Of a DNA stretch of 64,000 nucleotides, positions 16,415 to 58,100 are shown in pieces. The position numbers and the translations under genes were made by a program. The notes under the pieces were generated by a model, which did not search any database, was not told the origin of the DNA, and saw nothing but the letters and a program-made list of their open reading frames with translations. Origin of the DNA: a virus (taxonomy: Duplodnaviria > Caudoviricetes); IMG/VR virus record IMGVR_UViG_3300050821_001527, positions 138,883 to 202,882 of that record, one strand, 5' to 3'. Position 1 is the stretch's first letter. Each line of letters starts with the position of its first letter.

Positions 16415-17584
16415 ATGAAAATCTACGCCGAAAACACTCGCGTCCCAATCAAGTCTTGGTGTGAAAACCCGGAAGCCGGGGCTATCAAGCAGGCCGAGAA
16501 CATGGCCAACCTGCCATTCACTTTCAGACACGTCGCCCTCATGCCCGACACCCATCAAGGCTTTGGTATGCCTATCGGTGGAGTTCTGGCTACCGATAAC
16601 GTCATCATTCCGAACGCTGTCGGAGTTGACATTGGGTGCGGTATGTGTTCCATCGAATCCAACATCCAAACTTGGGACAGGGAACTGTTGACGGAAGCCA
16701 TCAAGGAAATCCGCTACAACGTTCCTGTCGGATTCAGCCGCCATCTTACCGCGAAGCCTGTGGACAAGCTGCCCGCCAGCACGTCCCCGAACGCCTACTA
16801 TGAGAAGTTCCTTGAGCCGTCCCTGTTCCAACTCGGAACCTTGGGCGGCGGGAATCACTTCATCGAATTACAGAAGAACCCGAACGGAAATCTGTGCGTG
16901 ATGATTCACTCTGGTAGCCGCAACATCGGGAAGCAGGTTGCCGACTATTACAACAAGCTCGCCCTCGCTCTGAACCAGCGTTATTTCAGTCAGGTCACGA
17001 AGGAAACCGACTTGGCGTTCCTGCCGCTTGACTCTGCCGAGGGTCAGGCTTACTTGGCGGAAATGACTTACTGTGTCGCGTTTGCCTTGGCGAACCGCAT
17101 GGAAATGATGAACGCTTGCCAGCAAGCCATCTACAAGGTTTTCAAGCCTTTGCAACAGGTCGAGTTCACGAACTTCATCAACATTCCGCACAATTATGCG
17201 AAGGTTGAAAAGCACTTCGGCAAGGAAGTCGTCGTCCACCGCAAGGGCGCGACGAATGCCAGCGAGGGCGTCATTGGGCTAATCCCCGGCTCGCAGGGCA
17301 CCAAGAGCTACGTGGTGCGCGGCAAGGGTAATCGTGAGAGCTTCGAGAGTTGCTCCCACGGCGCAGGCCGCAAGATGGGCCGCATGGTCGCCAAACGCAC
17401 TCTGAACATCGAAGACGAGCAACGCAAGCTGGACGAACTTGGAGTCATTCATGCCGTCCGCGCCAACTCTGACTTGGACGAGGCTCCGGGTTCCTATAAG
17501 GACATTGACGTGGTTATGAGCGAGCAAACCGACCTGATTGACGTTATCGAAGAACGCACTCCTTTGGGAGTCGTGAAGGGGTAA
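16415..17584 (+). CDS. rtcB: RtcB RNA 2',3'-cyclic phosphate ligase
   Basis: MPDTHQG.GMPIG, VGVDIGCG, GTLGGGNHFIE, IHSGSR, HN, VHRKGA, IPGSQG, CSHGAGR, DEAPGSYKDI. Confidence 0.97.
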   Translation: MKIYAENTRVPIKSWCENPEAGAIKQAENMANLPFTFRHVALMPDTHQGFGMPIGGVLATDNVIIPNAVGVDIGCGMCSIESNIQTWDRELLTEAIKEIRYNVPVGFSRHLTAKPVDKLPASTSPNAYYEKFLEPSLFQLGTLGGGNHFIELQKNPNGNLCVMIHSGSRNIGKQVADYYNKLALALNQRYFSQVTKETDLAFLPLDSAEGQAYLAEMTYCVAFALANRMEMMNACQQAIYKVFKPLQQVEFTNFINIPHNYAKVEKHFGKEVVVHRKGATNASEGVIGLIPGSQGTKSYVVRGKGNRESFESCSHGAGRKMGRMVAKRTLNIEDEQRKLDELGVIHAVRANSDLDEAPGSYKDIDVVMSEQTDLIDVIEERTPLGVVKG

Positions 17585-32809: not shown

Positions 32810-33628
32810 ATGAAAACGCCGCCATATATCATAACTGACCACTCCATCACCCTCGTCATCGGCAACAAGCCCCTCACGATGGTCGCTTCCAACGCCTCCT
32901 ACAGCGAGGTCAAGGCCCGTATCGCCCGTGGCGACTTCAAGGGCATCGAAGACCTTTTTGACGCTGGCAAGGCTCTGGCCCAATACGTCAATGGCAAAAT
33001 CGCCATCGTCGGCAACACCGTTCGTTTCAACGGCAACGTCGTCCACAACTACGTGGTGGACAAGATTATCGCCTTCCGCAAGCAGGGCTTACCCTATCAG
33101 CCGCTCCTGAACTTCCTTGAGAAGCTGTTGCAGAACCCGAGCCAGCATTCCGTGGAAGGTCTGTATTCCTTCTTGGAGAACGGCCTGATGCCGATTACCC
33201 CCGAAGGTAACTTCCAGTCCTACAAGGGCGTTCAGGACAACTTCTACTCCGTCCGCAACGGTTCCCTGACGTTGCTCAAGGGCCGCGCTGATTCGTCCGG
33301 CCACATCTACAACGGTGTCGGCGAGGAAATCGAATGCCCGCGCAACGAAGTCAGCGATAACTTCAACGAAGGCTGCGCCCGTGGCCTGCACATCGGTTCC
33401 CTGAACTACGCGAAGGGTTGGGGCAAGCGTGTGGTCATCGTCGAAGTCAACCCCGCTCATGTCGTCTCCGTTCCAAAGAACGAGGTCGAGAAGATGCGCT
33501 GCCACGCCTACAAGGTCGTGGGTGAGTTCAACGCCCCGCTTGACCAGAACTACACTGTCGGCACCACCGAGCAGTTGTCCGCGAAGGCCAAGGCCCAAAA
33601 GCGCGACTCCAACGGGCGTTTCGCCTAA
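32810..33628 (+). CDS. rIIB: rIIB-like protein
   Basis: PITPEGNF.SYKGV...CPRNEV.D....CA.GLHIGS..YA...VVIVEVNP.HVVSVP...KMRCH.YKV. Confidence 0.85.
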   Translation: MKTPPYIITDHSITLVIGNKPLTMVASNASYSEVKARIARGDFKGIEDLFDAGKALAQYVNGKIAIVGNTVRFNGNVVHNYVVDKIIAFRKQGLPYQPLLNFLEKLLQNPSQHSVEGLYSFLENGLMPITPEGNFQSYKGVQDNFYSVRNGSLTLLKGRADSSGHIYNGVGEEIECPRNEVSDNFNEGCARGLHIGSLNYAKGWGKRVVIVEVNPAHVVSVPKNEVEKMRCHAYKVVGEFNAPLDQNYTVGTTEQLSAKAKAQKRDSNGRFA

Positions 33629-33971: not shown

Positions 33972-34517
33972 ATGAAAATCCTTTTCCTCGATATTGATGG
34001 CGTCCTGAACAGCGAAGAATCGTTCCACCTGAACCATCAGGCTCGTTGCGATGACGCCCACCGTAATGGCCGCGACGGGGCTTCCTTCAAGCCGGAATTT
34101 TGCTGGCCCTTGGGACACCTTCACACGCCCCTGATTGCCCGTCTGAATCAAATCATGGAGGACACTGGTTGCTTCATCGTCCTATCCTCGTCTTGGAGAA
34201 TCATTTGCGACTTGCCGGATTTGCGCGGCTGGATGAAGCAGAAGGGTTTCGAGTTTGGGGACAGGATGATTGACAAGACGGACAATGACCCGCAGGACGC
34301 CCGTGGCGGGCAGATACAGCGTTGGCTGGACGCGCACCCCGAAGTGACTGCCTACGCAATCCTTGACGATGATTCCGAGGATATTGTCGGAACCTACACC
34401 ACAAAACATCACCACAACAACTTTGTCCATACGCCTTTCATGTATGGCCTTCAAGACGAGCAGGTTGGACAGGTGTTTGAAATTTTGAATCGCAGGAATA
34501 AGTCCTTGACAGTTTGA
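33972..34517 (+). CDS. HAD-superfamily phosphatase (HAD_SAK_2, RNA-repair-associated type)
   Basis: MKILFLDIDGVLNS, VLSSSWR, RGGQIQRWL, AILDDD. Confidence 0.85.
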   Translation: MKILFLDIDGVLNSEESFHLNHQARCDDAHRNGRDGASFKPEFCWPLGHLHTPLIARLNQIMEDTGCFIVLSSSWRIICDLPDLRGWMKQKGFEFGDRMIDKTDNDPQDARGGQIQRWLDAHPEVTAYAILDDDSEDIVGTYTTKHHHNNFVHTPFMYGLQDEQVGQVFEILNRRNKSLTV

Positions 34518-34540
34518 GAAGTGATTGGTAGTCTAATTAT

Positions 34541-34676
34541 GGTCTGAGCGGTAGCTGGACGTAAGGCAGTAGTCGGTGGCTAAAACAGGAAGTGGCAGGA
34601 GTAATTGCCCTGCTTACCCTGATAAATCTAAGGCGAATCGAGCGTCCGAGGGGCTAACAGCCCTTCCTGACCACCA
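34541..34676 (+). ncRNA. tRNA-scaffold RNA 1 (136 nt, ends in ACCA)
   Basis: Starts 6 nt after the -10 box TAGTCT; acceptor GGTCTGA/CCTGACC (2 mismatches); internal helix GGACG/CGTCC; T-like arm AGGGG-CTAACAG-CCCTT; ACCA. Confidence 0.6.
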
Positions 34677-34681
34677 ATTTA

Positions 34682-36068
34682 ATGAAAAAAAAGAATCTCA
34701 TAGTGGCCTATCAAACGCCTGACGGCGAACTTCATCCCGTCTGCATGGCCTACAGCCATTTCCATTTGGGCGTGGATAATGCGGCGGTGTTTACCGAAGA
34801 CCAGCAGATTCGCCTCGCCATTGCCGCCGTCAAGAGCCAGAAGGCCCACTGGAAGGGTTTGTCCCGCGATGGGGCGTTTGCCATCATCAATATTGACAAG
34901 CCGCACGGGTATTCCATTTTTCTCGAAAACGCTGGCGGGATTCTTGCCCACAACTACAAGGGACAAATTCGTCGAGCGGCAATCAGGAGCATTAACGGCA
35001 TGAGCGCGGCGGCATGGTATGAGAAGCTGCGCGAACGCAAGTCTTTATGCGTCGTATGAGATTTGAAGAACGATGGGCCTTAACGAAACATGGTCTGATA
35101 ATTCCTACCATCAAGTATGGGGATTTTAGCCAAGTCATTCTCCTACCCCTTTTTCTGTTGAGGTTTCCGAGGCAGGATTGGCCAGAGATACCAATGTATC
35201 GTGACTTCCCGGCCCTGCCCGGAACAAATACGTGTGTTCTAGTCTATGGCAAGAAACAGATTGGCTTGAGCATAGATTCAAACGGGGAGTCCATTGGGGT
35301 AAGTCTTAGCCATCCCGTATCTAAGTATTGGTTGTCTATTTTGCAGCCAATTTGGAACGCTCATAAGCCTAAATGCCCGACGTGCCGCGATACTGGTTGG
35401 GACGGAATAGGATACACACTAACCTGTGTTGATTGCGGAAAGTCCAAATAAATATGATTAAATTTAAAGACATGGCGATAGGCCAGCGATTCTTCGCATG
35501 GGGCGATTGCGTCCTGAACTACAATTACCCGAAATGGTGCCTGTTGGAAAAGGTTGACGAAAGCACAGCCAAGGAAATCATGGCTGACGGCAGCGATGGC
35601 ATCAAGACCGGAATGGAAACGGCGGGGAGTTTCATCCCCGAAGTCAAGCACGTTTTCCTTGTCGAAGTCAGCGTCCTGAATCCCATTGACAAGCCCGGAA
35701 CGATTCAAGGTCATGTGGAGAAATTCTTGCAGAACGTCAATGACCTACAGACGCAAATCGGAAGTTCCTCCAACTTCACCATAAAACTCCTTGACAAGAG
35801 TGGAAGCGTTTGATAAGGTTAGAGCGTAATGAAATTCGTGAAAGCAAATCTCGACGGCGAAGAATTGAGATTGACGATTGAGGGCTTAGAAAGCCTTTTG
35901 GAAAACATGAAATCTTGGGGGCAAAAAGCTCCATTATATTCTCCCATGCGAGAGGTCTTTCTTGCTCAATGTGAACAAAGAAAGGCGCGAATATCCGGTC
36001 TGGTTGAATACTTTCAGATAGGATTGCTCAATACTCCGAACGGACAATTTATCGGAGACAAAATTTAA
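34682..36068 (+). other. Hypothetical CDS (34682-35059, 35047-35451, 35454-35813, 35829-36068)
   Basis: ORF track plus promoter positions. Confidence 0.65.
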
Positions 36069-36271
36069 CGGTGGATAGCTCAGGTTCAGAGCGCAAGCTT
36101 AATAAGCTTTCCTGAAAAGGATAGCCGCACATTACCCGAGAGAAAGCGGAAAAAGTTGGCCGTGAAATTGACGGCAGAACGTTCGTGAGTAAAGCGGATA
36201 TGGGTGGTTGTTGGGTTCAGGAGTAGATTACATCTACGAGGTCGAAGAATGAAATCCTTCTCCACTGACCA
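36069..36271 (+). ncRNA. tRNA-scaffold RNA 2 (203 nt, ends in ACCA)
   Basis: Acceptor CGGTGGA/TCCACTG; TA; D arm GCTC-AGGTTCA-GAGC; hairpin AAGC-TTAATAA-GCTT; domain of about 110 nt closed by TCCTGAA/TTCAGGA; hairpin GTAGA/TCTAC; GAGGTC; T arm GAAGA-ATGAAAT-CCTTC; ACCA. Confidence 0.75.
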
Positions 36272-36323
36272 TTTTGTCACTACATTACTTTCCCGTAGTG
36301 ACATTCTTAGTGTAATATCTGAT

Positions 36324-36887
36324 ATGAACGAGTCAGATTACATTGGAAAAACTTTCAACCGCATTACCATCATCGGGAAAGACGAAGAACGCACTACCAA
36401 AGATTGCTTCTATGTTACTGGCAAATGCACTTGCGGACGTATCAAGAGTTATGCCCGCCACCGATTGATGGGAAAGGATGCTCCGCAAAGCTGCGGCTGC
36501 ATTCAAAGAGAACTCAAGGCTGGTAAGAAATATCTCCCACCGGGAGAGGCCGCGATTCGTGAAACATGGAGAATTTACAAAGAGAATGCTAAACGTCGTA
36601 AGTTTTCTTTTTCCATTGATTTATTGAATTTTAAATCATTGACCCAAAAACCCTGTCATTATTGCGGGGCACCACCAACCAACGTCCACAAAACCCGCAC
36701 AAAGACGCCAGATTCTTGTTCTTATAGCGGTTTAGACCGAGTGAAGACGCGAGAGGGATATAGCGTAGAAAATGTCGTAACCTGTTGTGCAGTTTGTAAT
36801 TGGATGAAAGGGACGATGGAATACGCCGAATTCATCAAACAGGTCGAAAAAATATCGAATCACTTGAAAAGCCTTGACAGGAAGTGA
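36324..36887 (+). CDS. HNH homing-type endonuclease (PacI-like C-terminus)
   Basis: IGKTFNRITI...KCTCG N-terminus; CHYCG...GLDRV...GYSVENVVTCCAVCNWMKG; ATG 7 nt after GTGTAAT. Confidence 0.85.
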   Translation: MNESDYIGKTFNRITIIGKDEERTTKDCFYVTGKCTCGRIKSYARHRLMGKDAPQSCGCIQRELKAGKKYLPPGEAAIRETWRIYKENAKRRKFSFSIDLLNFKSLTQKPCHYCGAPPTNVHKTRTKTPDSCSYSGLDRVKTREGYSVENVVTCCAVCNWMKGTMEYAEFIKQVEKISNHLKSLDRK

Positions 36888-36908
36888 ATTTTGGTTTAAT
36901 TTCAGTAT

Positions 36909-37373
36909 ATGTTTGCGACACATAACTCAGCCGTCGAGTCCTTCCAATTCAGGTGGGCGGAACCTTTGGGCTATCCCGAGTGTCCTTACATGAAAAGATG
37001 GGTTTTTGTGTTTTTCGGTTACTCTATTCGCGTCCATCACTGGATTCGCAGCGACGACAAACGTTTCTTTCATTGTCACCCTTGGAACTTTCTGACCATC
37101 GTTCTCAAGGGTGGTTACACGGATGTATCGCCGTCTTTAGACCTGTTTCTTGACGCTCAGGAGCCTATTAGAGAGACTTTGACGGCTGGAATGGTCAAAT
37201 ACCGTCGCGCCGAACACAAGCACTATGTTGATGTTCCCGTGGGCGGGGCATGGACTCTGCTTCTGGCCGGACGCAAAAAGCGCAAGTGGGGCTTTTGGAT
37301 TAAGCCTAACCAGTTTTTCCGACCACTACGATATTTCAGTAAATACGGACACCCGCCCTGTTCGGAACAGTGA
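36909..37373 (+). CDS. Cupin-fold protein
   Basis: SIRVHHW..SD...FHCHPW.F.TIVLKGGY.D...HKH.V. Confidence 0.7.
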   Translation: MFATHNSAVESFQFRWAEPLGYPECPYMKRWVFVFFGYSIRVHHWIRSDDKRFFHCHPWNFLTIVLKGGYTDVSPSLDLFLDAQEPIRETLTAGMVKYRRAEHKHYVDVPVGGAWTLLLAGRKKRKWGFWIKPNQFFRPLRYFSKYGHPPCSEQ

Positions 37374-37505
37374 TTAGCTCTTAACCAGCAAGTCAACAGC
37401 AAGCAGAATAACAGCAACCGGGATTAGGGGCCACGAAGGTTTGACAAGGGCACCAATCGCCAAGGCGAGCGCGAGAACGGGCAGGATGACATGAATGTTG
37501 TTCAT
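37374..37505 (-). CDS. 43-aa two-TM peptide (absent from the ORF track)
   Basis: TTGGAT-17-TATAAT-5-ATG on the - strand; MNNIHVILPVLALALAIGALVKPSWPLIPVAVILLAVDLLVKS*. Confidence 0.7.
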   Translation of the reverse strand: MNNIHVILPVLALALAIGALVKPSWPLIPVAVILLAVDLLVKS

Positions 37506-37559
37506 GCCTTATTATATTGGAAGTCAGGTATTTATCCAAGGGGAAATCCCCGATAGAAA

Positions 37560-39311
37560 ATGAAAACTGTCAGAGAATGGACAAATAAGGCGATGGATAC
37601 GACTTTTCGATGGGATTTCGAGAAGTTGATACAATCCATTCAGATAGATGCCTTTAAAGCGGGGCGCAAATCCGCCCGCCACGTTTGCCGCGAAAGCAAG
37701 ACCTGTGCCTGCGATATTCAGGGTTTGGAACCCAATGAAGAATGTCCGGTGCATGGCGCGGGGGAATATCCTCCCCGTTGCGGAACCTGCGGGCGTTTTA
37801 TCACCCGCGACAATAAATCTCAATAAATATGAGCCTTTCACAAGACCCGGAACAACTCGAAAATCTTCCCTCCCGCGAAGTCATTCGTGTCAGCGACACC
37901 TACGACCACTATTGGGGCGAAGGGATGCCTTGGGCGCGTATGAACCGTTGGTTCGAGGCTCAGGAGGGGCGCAATGTTGACCGCGTTTTCCACGACTTCG
38001 TGCATCTGAAATGGCTGCTGGCCGAATATCGCACCAAGGAACAATTCCGCCGCCACATTGAAATGGACACCTTCGTCGTGGATGGAAGGGTTTGCTACTA
38101 CGACGCTTACCACTCCCGCTGGCAAAACGAGCCTTGGCAGGTTGTCGAGAAGCAGGCTCGCAAGACCATCTACGTCAATCCGACTACACACACCGTCGAA
38201 ATCTTCAAGCCTCCGACGGACAAAAGCTGGAAGTCCCGCTGGTATGCCGAACGTGCGGCGAAGGTCAAGGTGCTTGGCGATTACCACCAGCTTTACAAGA
38301 AAGACGGTATTTGGTATGAAGTCAAGGCGCAAAAGGCCACCAACCGTATGCTCCACTTCACCCCTTGGCGTTGCCCCTTGAAAAAGCCGGATGACATTCT
38401 GATGGAAAGCGGCGACTCGCCCTTGGGCCAGCCCATCCAAATCATCCTCAAACGCCAGCTTAACAGCAAGGAACTGCGTAAACATGGCTTGGCCAACGAC
38501 TTGAAATAATCTATGAAAATAAGAAACGAGAAAGTAATTGACGTGTCCGATTGGGACGGCTTGGTTGAGAAAACGTATGGCAGGCCATACAGCTTCCAAC
38601 AGCAAGACGGGTGCCAGAGCAGGGGTAGTTTCCGCTTTAGCGTCCCGAGCGACGAAGCCTGCGACTTTGAAAGCGAAACCGTGCCGGAAATCGTCAACCA
38701 TGAAACGATGGGCGTGAGCTTTGCCGCATGGCTCAAACGCGACCCCAAGGCGAAATTGGCCGGGGAGAAAGATTGTCCCGATTACTGTATCGAATTGTGG
38801 TGGCACCGCAATTTCTATCCTGAATTTCAAACGGTGGCGAATGACCTTCACGCCAAGGGACTTCTGGAAGCCGGGGACTACACCATCAACATTGACTGGT
38901 AAATAAAATTCAATAAATATATGCTAGGCTACATCATACTCATTCTCCTGTTGGCCGTGTTTGTGGCGGCGTTCATCGTCGTCCGCAACCAGCGCGACAA
39001 AATCTACGATTCGATGGTCGAATATCGTCGCATGTATTGGGCTGAATGTGACCGTGCCGACGACTTGGAAATCAGGCTCATAGACGGGCCGAAACCCCCA
39101 AAGGATTGACGTGGAAAGACTTACGCTTAACCAGCAAGAGGATTGGCAGACATGGAAGCAGTCTATGGGGCGTTATTCGGGCATTGACTTCGACAAGGAG
39201 CCTACCCATTATCCGTGTATCTTGTTGTGGTTCAACTATGATATTCGAGGCTCCAAACATGATGGGGGTGGCCACGATTTTGTTTACAGGGAAGATTTGG
39301 AAAAGCTTTGA
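37560..39311 (+). other. Hypothetical CDS (37560-37826, 37829-38509, 38513-38902, 38921-39109, 39111-39311)
   Basis: Tightly packed ORFs. Confidence 0.65.
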
Positions 39312-39388
39312 TTTTCCCTTGACAGTTCAAGAATTATCTGTCAGAGTAATAGAGTAGTCGCAGTAAAAACCTAAACTTAAAACCTAAA

Positions 39389-41455
39389 ATGATTCAACTC
39401 GACAAACCCAACACGGTAATTTCCAGCGGCATCGAAAACGCTGTCTCCTTCGGCATCAAGCAGGAAGGACTGGCCCACATCTTCTCCGTTCTCCGCAATC
39501 AACTGTATTCTGACAAGACCCTCGCCGTAATCCGCGAGTATTGCACGAATGCCGTTGACGCCCATGTCGAAGCCGGGAAAGCCCTACTGCCCATCAAGGT
39601 CACGCTGCCCTCCCGCTTCAATCTGGTGTTCAAGGTGCGCGATTTCGGCTTGGGCCTGACCGAGCAGGACATTCAGGACATTTACGCCTTCTACGGCGAA
39701 TCCACGAAGCGCAAGAGCAACGCCATGATTGGGCAGTTGGGCTTGGGCAGCAAGTCGGCTTTCGCCTACGGTGACAATTTCGTCATCACTTCCTACACCA
39801 ACGGAACCAAGACCACCTACAACGCCTTCATTGACGTGACGCAGATTGGTCAAATCGCCAAGTTGGGCAGCGAACCCACCGACGAGCCGAATGGTGTTGA
39901 GATTTCCATTGGCGTCCGCGAGGATGACGTGGAAGATTTCCACAGCAAGGCCGAGAACCTTTTCAAGTATTTCAAGGTCAAGCCGGAAATTGACGGCGCG
40001 GATTTCAAGTTTGAAGCCCGTGTTCCCATCATGGAAGGCAAGGGCTGGCGCGTGTTCAGCGGCACTTCCGTTGCCGTCATGGGCAACATCGGCTACCCGC
40101 TCGAAAACCACACGAAGGACAACCAGATTGCCGAAGCTTTGACGGCGGGCATTGAAGTTGATTTCAACATCGGCGACTTGGAAATTTCCGCCTCCCGCGA
40201 AAAGCTGCAATACACTGACCGCACCAAGGCTGCGGTGGAAGCCAAGCTGCGTGAAGTCATCAAGGAAGCGGGCGAGCAGTTGAACAAGCGTTTCGCCGCC
40301 TGCGCGACGTTGTTTGACGCGATGAAGCTGTATGGACAGGTCATGGACTACGGTTCTAGTCTGTATCCCCTGCGCGGCCTGTTGAAGAAGAATCTGATGT
40401 TCAACGGCACTTCGATTTCGAGTAGCCGCCTACACTTCCAAACGCCGAATGACGGTAGTTGGAACGTGCGTGAATACAGCCTGACCTACCGCTCGAAGCG
40501 CGTCCGCTCGAATCAGGTCAACGTGATTGACTGTGACGAAAAGACGGTTGTGGTTCTGAACGACTTGGGCCTGCGCGGTGGGATTCCGAATCGCGTCCAT
40601 GCCAATGTCATGGCGGGCAAGCGTGTCTATGTCGCCTACTATGCGAACAAGGACAGCGCGAAGTTCTTGAAGGAAACCGGACTGGTGGATGCGAACTGCA
40701 TCCTCCTTAGCTCGCTGCCGAAAGTCAGCTTGGCGACTGCCGGTAATTCCGGTGGCGGGGCGAAGAACAGCAAGCACGGTCTTAGCGTGTTCTCCTTCGA
40801 TTACGCCGCTTCCAAGAACATGACCCGCTATTCCAGCCGCAATTCCGACTACTGGAAGCCCGAAACGGTGGACGTGGCGAATGATGCCGGTGTCTATGTC
40901 ATCATTGACCAGTTCAACTTCCAGACCCGCAACAGTGGTTGGGATAGCCCGAGCGACATGCGCCGTCTGATTGAACGCTTGGAAAAGTTGGGCATCACGG
41001 TGCCGACCATCTACGGGTTCAAGGCCAAGCAGTTTGAGAAGGCCCGCAAGAACGCCAAGATGGTTAGCCTGTGGAACTGGCTCGACACCACGCTGGCCGC
41101 GTATTTCACCACGAATGACATTTCGCAGAAGCTCGCCAATCGCATCGAGTTCAACAACAACAGGGGTTCTGAAAGTTGGATTCGCACCTTGATGGCCCAC
41201 GCCAGCGAGTTGACTCCCAAGACGAGTGCTGCCGGGACTGCGGAGTTCCTGCGCCATCTGGAATGCTCTGGCGAAGCTGCGAAGCTGGACGCTTGCGCCG
41301 AGTTTTCGGGTTACGTGACGCTGGTGAAGCCCGAGTTCACCATGTCCGAAATTGCGAAGGACTTCAACGCGAAGTATCCCTTGCTCAAGTTCGTCAACTT
41401 CGGCCAGCCGAATAGCTGGATTGCGACACTCGCATACATCAACTTGGTTGGGTAA
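39389..41455 (+). CDS. rIIA: rIIA-like protein (N-terminal GHKL/HATPase domain)
   Basis: LYSDKTLAVIREYCTNAVDAH, VRDFGLGL, STKRKSN..IGQLGLGSKSAFAY, ISASREKL.YT. Confidence 0.88.
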   Translation: MIQLDKPNTVISSGIENAVSFGIKQEGLAHIFSVLRNQLYSDKTLAVIREYCTNAVDAHVEAGKALLPIKVTLPSRFNLVFKVRDFGLGLTEQDIQDIYAFYGESTKRKSNAMIGQLGLGSKSAFAYGDNFVITSYTNGTKTTYNAFIDVTQIGQIAKLGSEPTDEPNGVEISIGVREDDVEDFHSKAENLFKYFKVKPEIDGADFKFEARVPIMEGKGWRVFSGTSVAVMGNIGYPLENHTKDNQIAEALTAGIEVDFNIGDLEISASREKLQYTDRTKAAVEAKLREVIKEAGEQLNKRFAACATLFDAMKLYGQVMDYGSSLYPLRGLLKKNLMFNGTSISSSRLHFQTPNDGSWNVREYSLTYRSKRVRSNQVNVIDCDEKTVVVLNDLGLRGGIPNRVHANVMAGKRVYVAYYANKDSAKFLKETGLVDANCILLSSLPKVSLATAGNSGGGAKNSKHGLSVFSFDYAASKNMTRYSSRNSDYWKPETVDVANDAGVYVIIDQFNFQTRNSGWDSPSDMRRLIERLEKLGITVPTIYGFKAKQFEKARKNAKMVSLWNWLDTTLAAYFTTNDISQKLANRIEFNNNRGSESWIRTLMAHASELTPKTSAAGTAEFLRHLECSGEAAKLDACAEFSGYVTLVKPEFTMSEIAKDFNAKYPLLKFVNFGQPNSWIATLAYINLVG

Positions 41456-55100: not shown

Positions 55101-58100
55101 GAAGCCGGGATTTTTCTCGAACGGCGGCGAAGTCAGGAAGCGAGTCGTCGCCTCCACCGTCCTGCTGGCTTTTTCGAGGACACTCACGAATGATGAATTG
55201 AAGAACTGGCGTTTCTTTAAGCTTGGCTACCTTTGCCGCACCTACACGCCGACCTGTTGGTCGTAATTGTCCTTGACAACACCCGAACATTTGGTAGAGT
55301 AAAAGAGTAGTCGGAACCTAAAACCAAAAACCTATGCCTAAAATCAAACCCCTCAAGTATGACCCCTGCTGCGGGACGCACATCAATCAAGCCTGCAAAG
55401 AGGCTGCTGCGCTTGCCAAGGAAAACGGGCGCATCGTCAATTTCAACTTCAACGGCGTCAAGCTTTCTGCCTCACCCGGCAAACCCGCCTCCACGTTGAA
55501 TTGGGAATACAACATGGAAATGAATCGCCTTGCCCACACGCCGGAAGCGGTTCGCAAACGCAAGGAATGGGAAGCTGAATCCGCCCGTGAAGTCGCGGAA
55601 ACCCAAGTCAAGGCTGACCGATTGATGGGCAAGCTGCCCCAAGTCGTCGGGAACCTGACCGAGTTGATGGCGTGGCTCAAGGAATACACGCCCTGCGCCG
55701 ACCTGATTGGCGTTAAGGCTGGCAATGAGCAACTGTTGATGTCCTTGACCGAGGCCGGTTACGAAGTCGGTTGGGGCGTTGGCAAGCCCAAGGAGTTTTT
55801 CGTGAAGGCGGAAAACGTGGGCCGTTGGGTCGTGGGACAGGTCATGGACTGCCTCAAGAGGGGCATGGGGCCGCATCCCATCACCACGAAGTTCTGCGAC
55901 GACTACAAAGCGTTACTGAAATGAGCAAGCCGATTACACCAGCCGAAGCCAAGGGATTGGCGCAGGAGTCAATCCCCGGCTTCGTGTTTGAAGCGGTCAA
56001 TCACCTGATTGCCACGAAGCTTGGAAGCAGTTCCAGCGTGAGTCTCAAGCAGGACGAGATTATCGCAGCGATTTTGGAACGTCCCGAGGCGGAAAGTCTG
56101 ACTCGCGGGGACGTGTTCAGCAATCATTGGCTGGACTTCGAGCCATCCTATAGAAAAGCGGGATGGGAAGTCGAATACGACAAGCCGGGATACTGCGAGA
56201 GCTACGAAGCGAACTTCACTTTCTCGTTCAAACAATAAAATTCAATTTATATGACTCGTCCGCAACTACCATCAGCACCCCGTCTGCGCGAACCCAACAA
56301 AACTTGGACGGAACGCAAGGAGCTTAATCGCAAGCAAATTTGGGACGGTGACGAGTTGGAGTTGTCCCCCACGTCCAGATATTTCTTTGACGTGCAATAC
56401 GATGGCGATACTTCTGACTACTTTTTGGTGGAGTATCAGGAAGTTGAACGCCCGAACGATGCTTACGCCAAACAACTCGCGGCCTACAATCGTGAGCAGA
56501 CCGAATACAAGGCTGACGTTGCCTCCTATCCCGACAGGCTCGCCCAATGGGAAGCGGGAGAACGTGGACGCAAGATGGAGCAATTCCTGCGCCTGAAAGC
56601 TGAATTGGGGCAATGACATGGACACCGTTCTCGAATTTCAACTGTGGTGGCTGGCCGACGAGCAATACAAGTTGCGCGACCAAGTGAGCAAGGAAGATGC
56701 TTTCCTAATATGGAAGGCTGCTTACACCATCGGGTATGACGAGGGTAAGTGGTTAAATGCCAATTAAAAATTCAATTTATATGCCAAACACTGTTAAATC
56801 CAATCAAGCCCGCACCATCGTTCCTGAACCATTGATGGGTGACATTTATCAGGACACCGAGACGAAAGAGCTTTACATGCTCGCGTGTTCCCGAACTGAC
56901 GAATATGCCGCCATTTCCCTGACGGACGGAAACCGTTTCAGCGACACCAGAAGCGATAAAAACGCAGCGGTTCGTGGTCTGGTTTTCTTCGGCAGGAACG
57001 TGAAAATTACCGTCCAAAGATAATTATGCCACGCCTGAAACGATACGCCTACATTCTGGAAACCGGGGATTCTCAATGGTCGCTTGAAACCACCCGCAAG
57101 ATGCCGCCGCTCCAAGTGTTCAAGGCTCTCTATCCCCGAATTTCGGAGGAAGCCAAGACCCTTGGGATAATCTTTTCCGTTTCGGGCGGGGACTTGGACG
57201 AGCCGGTGTATGTGTCCACGGAACGCGCCCTGCGTCACATTGGCAAATGGATTGAATAACCTTGACAGGAAACGAAAAATCCCTTAGATTAACAATATGA
57301 AAGCACTTGGATACATTACGGCAACGATTCTGGTTTCGGTCTATTCGACCCTCCTGAATGGTTGGGGTCTGACTAAGCTGTGGGCTTGGTTCATCGTCAC
57401 AACTTTCGGCTTGAAGCCGCTGCCCATCGCCGCTGCGATTGGTGTCTCTCTGGTTGCGAGCTATCTCACGCACCAGTTGATTACTTCCAAGGAGGCGAGC
57501 GAGAAAAGCTACGGGCAAGTCATCACCGAAGGCTTTATCTGGACGACCTTCAAGGTTGTGTTCGCTCTGGTGGGCGGGTTCATCGTGAAAGCGTGGATGT
57601 AACATGGAATCCACTTACACCAAGGAGTATGAAGTCAAGTATGTCTTGGGCGAGTGGTGGACTACCTTTGCCACCTGTTCAAGCCGCGAATACGCTGACC
57701 GTATCGAACAAATGCTTTTAGCGGACGGCAAGACCACCCGCATTGACGCCATTCGTCAGGGTGTCATCCTCGGAACCCCGAAACAACAATCGTAAATTTT
57801 ATGGTCAAGTATCGCATACGCTACAAGTTCAAAAGCCGCATCGGGAACCTGTATTTCAATCTCGAAAAGAGCGAGAATGATTTCCGCTCCTGCCAAGTCA
57901 TCGCTGAAAATGAGCCTGTCGAGGAATGTGAGCGCGTCTTGAAAGCCATTCTTGAAGGCGAGAGAGAAGTAATCATCGTCCCTATCCAAGTATCCACTTT
58001 CCGTCTCCACTAATTATGTCCATCCTGCGCGAATATACCTGCTCCTGTTCCCCGAGCGTTCCTTTCTGCGTCGTCCACAAGACTTTGGAGGGCAGGCAGG

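Follow-up and report, generated by a model that had tools for sequence, protein, structure and literature searches.

The window analysed here comprises the final 64 kb (64,000 nucleotides) of a 202,882-bp IMG/VR phage record, which represents a 203-kb soil phage with a genome GC content of 49%. Positions are those of the window unless they are marked as genome positions. Between a gene for a HAD phosphatase and ORF 34682 lies an intergenic gap of 164 nt, which holds a structured RNA of 136 nt preceded by an early-type promoter (Table 1).

Table 1. Features of the RNA locus and of associated genes, in window coordinates
Feature	Position	Strand	Remarks
RtcB RNA ligase	16415-17584		
rIIB-like gene	32810-33628		
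HAD phosphatase, 'Swiss Army Knife' RNA-repair type	33975-34517		PF18143; true length 181 aa; upstream gene
Early-type promoter	34506-34534	+	From sequence; same build as the 62 TTGAC-N16-18-TAnnnT sites of the phage
Accessory block, HAD gene to rIIA	34518-39388	+	4.87 kb; absent from nearest relatives; RNA is its first element
Structured RNA, 136 nt	34541-34676	+	Start G34541 predicted; ACCA is the proposed 3' end
Closing helix, 5' strand GGUCUGA	34541-34547	+	Pairs with 34666-34672
Small D-like hairpin AGC-GGUA-GCU	34547-34556	+	Pair probabilities 0.94-0.996
Long irregular arm	34557-34647	+	Closing-helix probability 0.94-0.95
T-position hairpin	34648-34666	+	Pair probabilities 0.81-1.0
Closing helix, 3' strand CCUGACC (34666-72), discriminator A and CCA	34666-34676	+	From sequence
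AUUUA trailer, CCA to ATG	34677-34681	+	Proposed cleavage zone, from (A)TTT enrichment behind tRNAs
ORF 34682, 125 aa	34682-35059	+	Function unknown; starts 5 nt past ACCA; first gene of the block
rIIA-like gene (GHKL ATPase)	39389-41455		

The phage carries RNA-repair functions, as is evident from the presence of the HAD RNA-repair phosphatase, RtcB and the rIIA- and rIIB-like genes. Because the HAD gene adjoins the RNA and RtcB is encoded as well, a Y RNA (YrlA/Ro) was considered and rejected: the phage has no TROVE gene, the RNA ends in an acceptor-type helix and not in a distal stem, and there is no match in Rfam.

ORF 34682 has six remote homologues (34-40% identity), all of them on Logan/ENA contigs. 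Closer relatives were not found, neither Pfam nor PHROG gave a match, the Atlas offered no lead, and pattern scans of IMG/VR and GTDB returned no relatives. It is followed in the accessory block by further genes, the block containing in all three ORFs without a family match, an HNH endonuclease (36204-36887) and a cupin-type protein. In the related loci L002 and L004 the HAD gene has rIIA immediately behind it, an rIIA with 53% identity to 39389-41455. Each border of the block carries a copy of the -35 region CCTTGACAGTTnnAGAA (34503-34520 and 39318-39335), which suggests that the block entered by recombination between promoter sequences. A second tRNA-shaped RNA, with an NCCA-TTTT end, lies within the block at 36069-36271, 1.4 kb downstream of the 136-nt RNA. 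Neither the RNA nor any of the three ORFs downstream of it has a paralogue in the genome. The leaders of rIIA (39350-39388) and of the ORF at 55334 (55302-55333) are clearly homologous (GAGTAGTCG...AACCTAAAAC...AAAACCTA, a score reached by none of 300 shuffles) and represent a shared leader type.

Promoter and predicted start site

The promoter consists of a -35 element TTGACA (34506-34511), a 17-nt spacer, a TG (34526-27) and the -10 element TAGTCT (34529-34534). Its upstream part lies within the end of the HAD gene, which has its stop codon at 34515-17. All HAD relatives L002-L007, which come from metagenomes and are 48-61% identical, have a TTGACx promoter at the same place, likewise overlapping the end of the HAD gene. 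An alternative promoter, TTGAGA-18-TATGGT, was discarded as being weaker than the TTGACA/TGn site and off the consensus of the phage.

On the + strand of the whole genome 62 sites of the form TTGAC-N16-18-TAnnnT were collected, and a promoter was called leaderless where the ATG of an ORF of 50 aa or more followed within 10 nt of the -10 element. By this measure 44 of the 62 are leaderless, the spacing from -10 to ATG being exactly 6 nt in 32 of those. Leaderless mRNAs thus appear to be the rule in this phage, and would mostly start at the seventh base after the -10 element. G34541 is the seventh base after TAGTCT, and the spacing at the 32 leaderless promoters makes it the predicted start, a credible prediction by comparison within the genome. 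The preliminary description had given the RNA its own promoter, with a start 6 nt past TAGTCT on the first G; such a promoter is present in the sequence, and the spacing agrees with that start.

In only eight of the 62 cases is the distance from promoter to ORF greater than 100 nt, a class which includes the promoter of the tRNA array. Since the RNA abuts ORF 34682 with neither a terminator nor a gap, one might regard it as a plain structured 5' leader of the ORF 34682 operon, uncut at ACCA and with tRNA-like ends by coincidence, which would at most stabilise the message or tune its translation. We consider this, the main rival of the reading preferred below, rather unlikely. Where leaders are not simply absent in this phage, the ordinary ones are 31-60 nt long, A-rich (21-38% GC) and unstructured, quite unlike the present RNA with its 55% GC and multiple helices.

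Fold of the RNA and comparison with tmRNA and tRNA

Folded alone, the 136-nt RNA forms a four-way junction with an MFE of -49.2 kcal/mol and pair probabilities of about 0.95. Its parts are a closing helix of 4 bp with an additional pair, a hairpin of 3 bp with the loop GGUA, a long arm that has 6 bp at its base, and a hairpin of 8 bp. Its stability is only moderate: the folding z-score is -1.74 against shuffles, 12 of 200 shuffles being equally stable. Among all 136-nt windows of the genome its MFE falls in the top 1.6%, and among the GC-matched ones in the top 4%. The moderate z-score would also suit a plain leader.

The strands of the closing helix, GGUCUGA and CCUGACC, form five pairs, of which pairs 1-4 have a probability of 0.95 and pair 6 one of 0.44. 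Positions 5 and 7 are mismatched (U5-U128 and A7-C126), and the two acceptor mismatches noted in the preliminary description are therefore real. With five of seven positions paired the acceptor is worse than that of each of 53 phage tRNAs (6-7), while G1-C72 and ACCA are present. These two mismatches, the worst in the set of the genome, would suit a decaying relic, that is, a former tRNA-like gene or a recombination scar which arrived with the 4.9-kb block and which is still transcribed and has no function. The setting would suit it too, as the block is missing from the relatives and the RNA lies near a duplicated promoter segment and an HNH endonuclease. We think a relic quite improbable, however, because the fold is still well defined and GC-rich, and because ACCA, the trailer and the exact start-site register are all intact.

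A 9-nt 'D' stretch follows the 5' acceptor-type strand. The long arm, closed by GGACGU/GCGUCC (34557-62/34642-47), stands at the position of a tRNA anticodon arm; in place of an arm with a 7-nt loop there is thus a 6-bp helix around 81 nt of further structure, at whose tip is the hairpin GGCAGG-AGUAAUUG-CCCUGCU. The arm also contains AGTAGTCGGnnnCTAAAAC, a 19-nt motif that is common (16/19) to this RNA and the leader at 55306. On the strength of that motif, part of the RNA may derive from an ordinary leader, and the match counts in favour of the plain-leader explanation. A 21-codon GTG frame, MAGVIALLTLINLRRIERPRG, lies inside the RNA at 34592-34657; it is in frame with ORF 34682, with a single TAA between the two.

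After a one-base linker, G34648, comes the T-position hairpin, which in the MFE fold has 8 bp and an AAC loop. In the register of a tRNA it has 5 bp (34649-53/34661-65) and a 7-nt loop, AGGGG-CUAACAG-CCCUU (34649-65). The loop CUAACAG is neither UUCRANY nor the nGCnnnn of the majority of the phage tRNAs, and resembles the NNNNCAR loops of five of the 53. The ACCA is at 34673-76. All parts of the layout first proposed for this RNA (acceptor strands, D region, a helix arm of about 80 nt, a 1-nt linker, a T-type arm and ACCA) can thus be found in the sequence.

The RNA had been called 'mini-tmRNA-like' from its topology. With the tRNA-like domain of tmRNA (RF00023 and the ARAGORN models) it does share the acceptor helix, a D region that is short and forms no proper arm, a long helix at the position of the anticodon stem, and the T-position hairpin followed by ACCA. 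The order of parts and a size about one third that of tmRNA are borne out, and kinship with tmRNA is not. Unlike tmRNA, the RNA has no G3-U70, no canonical (UUCRANY) T loop, no pseudoknots, no credible tag frame and no match to a tmRNA model. Position 3 is a U, paired with A130, in agreement with the earlier remark that alanine identity is lacking. Where a tmRNA would have a tag frame with a resume codon, there is only a frame of five codons with no hydrophobic tag end (GCA GUA GUC GGU GGC UAA, 34566-34583), and it falls within the motif common to ordinary leaders.

With default thresholds ARAGORN called neither a tRNA nor a tmRNA anywhere in the window, nor did it with introns allowed; at lowered thresholds it made hundreds of calls, which were uninformative. 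No Rfam family, RF00005 included, reached its gathering score in the window, or E <= 10 over 34300-34900. A covariance model (R2) was built from 24 of the phage's own tRNAs, which form an array at genome 116,600-133,900, outside the window. This model identified 53 genes with an encoded CCA in the array, as against 20 with Rfam and 17 with ARAGORN. Run at E <= 10 with filters off, it recovered these 53 and did not report the 136-nt RNA. Judged by its sequence, the RNA is neither a tmRNA nor a decoding tRNA.

The phage already has a full tmRNA, which ARAGORN located at genome 108618-109001 (T loop UUCAACU), and a gene for SmpB was not found in the phage. That the RNA is a miniature tmRNA, charged and active in ribosome rescue, which the topology and the short GCA frame might recommend, is in our view extremely improbable given this full tmRNA without SmpB and the differences set out above. 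Five nucleotides past the tmRNA, at genome 109007-109122, is a 116-nt RNA having a perfect 7-bp acceptor with G3-U70, a T loop UUUAACU and ACCA. From its sequence this would be a better candidate than the 136-nt RNA for a small tmRNA-like or alanine-type RNA.

Searches for homologues of the 136-nt RNA were negative. There was no match by blastn against INPHARED, none in 23-mer and two-anchor pattern scans of IMG/VR, and none with nhmmer and a single-sequence model of the RNA (R1) over 160 HAD loci, 60 rIIA loci and 20 whole phage records. As no homologue was found, covariation lends the fold no support, and it is here that every reading of the RNA is weakest. A 20-mer of the central hairpin, taken from the GTG frame, matched three GTDB genomes. 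Two of the matches, in MAGs, are membrane-helix coding (LAGVIALL), the flanks differ, and the matches were dismissed as due to chance. A comparison with the RNA that follows the array promoter at genome 116433 gave no significant similarity.

The want of homologues is what one might expect of a plain leader. It weighs against a cis-regulatory RNA for the accessory operon, such as a ligand-sensing leader or a put-like processive antiterminator, for which no conservation was found. The well-defined multi-helix fold, proximal to a promoter and ahead of an operon, would accord with such a regulator. Nevertheless, we hold it to be very unlikely: no Rfam family appears even at E <= 10, there is neither a terminator nor a sequestered start that might serve as its target, and the start region is unpaired in longer folds.

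The tRNA-type ends

The tRNAs of the array are unusual in that their T loops are mostly nGCnnnn (UGCGAnU, AGCGUUA, GGCAGAA, CGCGAUA) and many of their D loops are without GG, so that their elbow is non-standard. With them and with the insert-bearing tRNA-shaped RNAs of this phage the 136-nt RNA shares a 7-nt acceptor strand adjoining a 5-bp/7-nt hairpin, NCCA and an (A)UUU trailer. It is different from the phage tRNAs in lying 40 kb from the array, in its two acceptor mismatches and in having a D arm of only 3 bp; there is no sequence similarity between them, and R2 misses it. With the insert-bearing RNAs it has in common a large folded insert at the anticodon position, in the same genome. Lak megaphages reportedly have 'enigmatic' tRNA introns.

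Directly behind CCA, (A)TTT occurs in 47 of the 53 phage tRNA genes, compared with 2.9% of the other 3,160 CCA sites. A composite signature was accordingly defined as a stem of 5 bp with a 7-nt loop, then 7 nt, NCCA, the (A)TTT trailer and a 5' partner strand, the last being sought within 300 nt and having its first four positions, and at least five of seven overall, paired. This signature is present 43 times in the tRNA array. Elsewhere on the + strand there are just two cases, one where the tmRNA ends and one at 34676; two more lie on the - strand, and 30 block-shuffled genomes had a mean of 0.43. If the trailer is left out the motif becomes frequent, the + strand of the window by itself having some nine such 3' ends, and single features are for this reason not decisive.

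The 5' end was brought in by anchoring the 5' strand at the predicted start, within one nucleotide, at each of the 62 promoters. A start-anchored helix with NCCA arises at 12 of them, so that this pairing by itself is obtained by chance and would be compatible with a plain leader. With the 5-bp/7-nt hairpin added, two promoters are left, the second of which heads the tRNA array, and with the (A)TTT trailer as well just one, the promoter of the 136-nt RNA. The combination found at the ends of this RNA is more than chance would give. That the full signature, hairpin and trailer included, is unique among the 62 promoters and otherwise limited to tRNAs and tmRNA argues against a plain leader with coincidental ends. 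The sequence supports a discrete, promoter-started, structured and non-coding stretch, and we read its termini as mimics of the ends of the phage's own tRNAs.

Proposed processing and its parallels

Based upon these features, transcription would start at G34541, the first base of the closing helix. The RNA is predicted to fold into the four-way junction, in which coaxial stacking of the closing helix with the 3' hairpin can give an acceptor/T-type minihelix ending in ACCA. The host or phage machinery for tRNA 3' maturation would then cut the AUUUA just past CCA, by analogy with the 53 tRNA genes, presumably with a cut of RNase E or RNase Z type followed by trimming. In transcripts that read through from the HAD gene, RNase P could make a further cut ahead of G34541. 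Cleavage would free a stable tRNA-ended RNA and leave the message of ORF 34682 with a leader of about 5 nt, the form which the phage, with 44 of its 62 promoters leaderless, seems to prefer.

The preliminary description had set an RNA gene against a plain 5' UTR of ORF 34682. Both are probably true in part, the element being co-transcribed with the ORF and likely cut at ACCA. The reading that we prefer, and to which we would give about half of our confidence, is that of a tRNA-end mimic, co-transcribed with ORF 34682 and cut at ACCA in the manner of a t-element. The array offers an analogy. At least five array ORFs begin 3-6 nt past a tRNA CCA and take up the space as far as the following tRNA (two such ORFs are genome 121045-121461, which ends 6 nt before the next tRNA, and 124546-124728, which ends 5 nt before it), and the ACCA-AUUUA-AUG junction of ORF 34682 is the same as these tRNA-ORF junctions. 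PHROG matches just one of these ORFs, and the case for their reality is therefore mainly how exactly they fit; chance alone would give about 0.4 such junctions, by our own rough estimate and not by a computation with a tool. The fit has the look of tRNA punctuation of near-leaderless mRNAs. As a counterpoint to cleavage, AUUUA may be mere start-codon context.

Punctuation alone leaves the element unexplained, because a promoter 6 nt before the ATG already gives a leaderless message. One might suppose more broadly that the phage uses punctuation by true tRNAs and by tRNA-end mimics to carve out near-leaderless mRNAs, and that the released 136-nt RNA is itself functional, its 81-nt arm being cargo or a binding site (for example as a decoy that draws off host factors which read or attack acceptor ends). 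We regard this extended proposal as speculative and, taken as a whole, unlikely.

In plant mitochondria, t-elements fold in a non-canonical, tRNA-like way, and a cut at their 3' end, most likely by RNase Z, sets the 5' end of an mRNA such as that of cox1 (PMC1920247); the documented parallel is of this kind, and the motif GGTTCRANYCC served to locate some of them (Forner et al. 2007, PMC1920247). Features of t-element type are found here, namely the non-canonical tRNA-like fold, a closing helix adjoining a 5-bp/7-nt hairpin, and the tRNA-type flanking ACCA-ATTT. As with t-elements and mitochondrial tRNA punctuation, this fold comes directly before an mRNA. The proposed role is also the same, that of steering tRNA-processing enzymes so that the 5' end of the mRNA would be made at the 3' end of the element, and the released element may likewise persist as a small RNA. 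The phage RNA differs from t-elements in being promoter-started, which makes a 5' cut unnecessary, in encoding its CCA, and in having an 81-nt arm in place of the anticodon arm. It is without GGTTCRANYCC, and its processing is only predicted.

From its tRNA region phage T4 expresses two small stable RNAs, C and D, which are about 120-140 nt long, have no known function and are matured together with the tRNAs. These too are phage-encoded RNAs of like length; unlike the present one they lie inside the tRNA cluster.

As a single orphan sequence, the RNA permits only a modest claim. In the literature that was searched, tRNA-like processing signals are known from mitochondria and none has been described for phages. 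If the RNA is cut at ACCA, it would be a phage case in which tRNA-like structures beyond the tRNA array act as processing signals. It would add a promoter-headed member to the tRNA-shaped RNAs with large inserts in this genome, and such signals would, if this is true, make the leaderless messages that the phage prefers.
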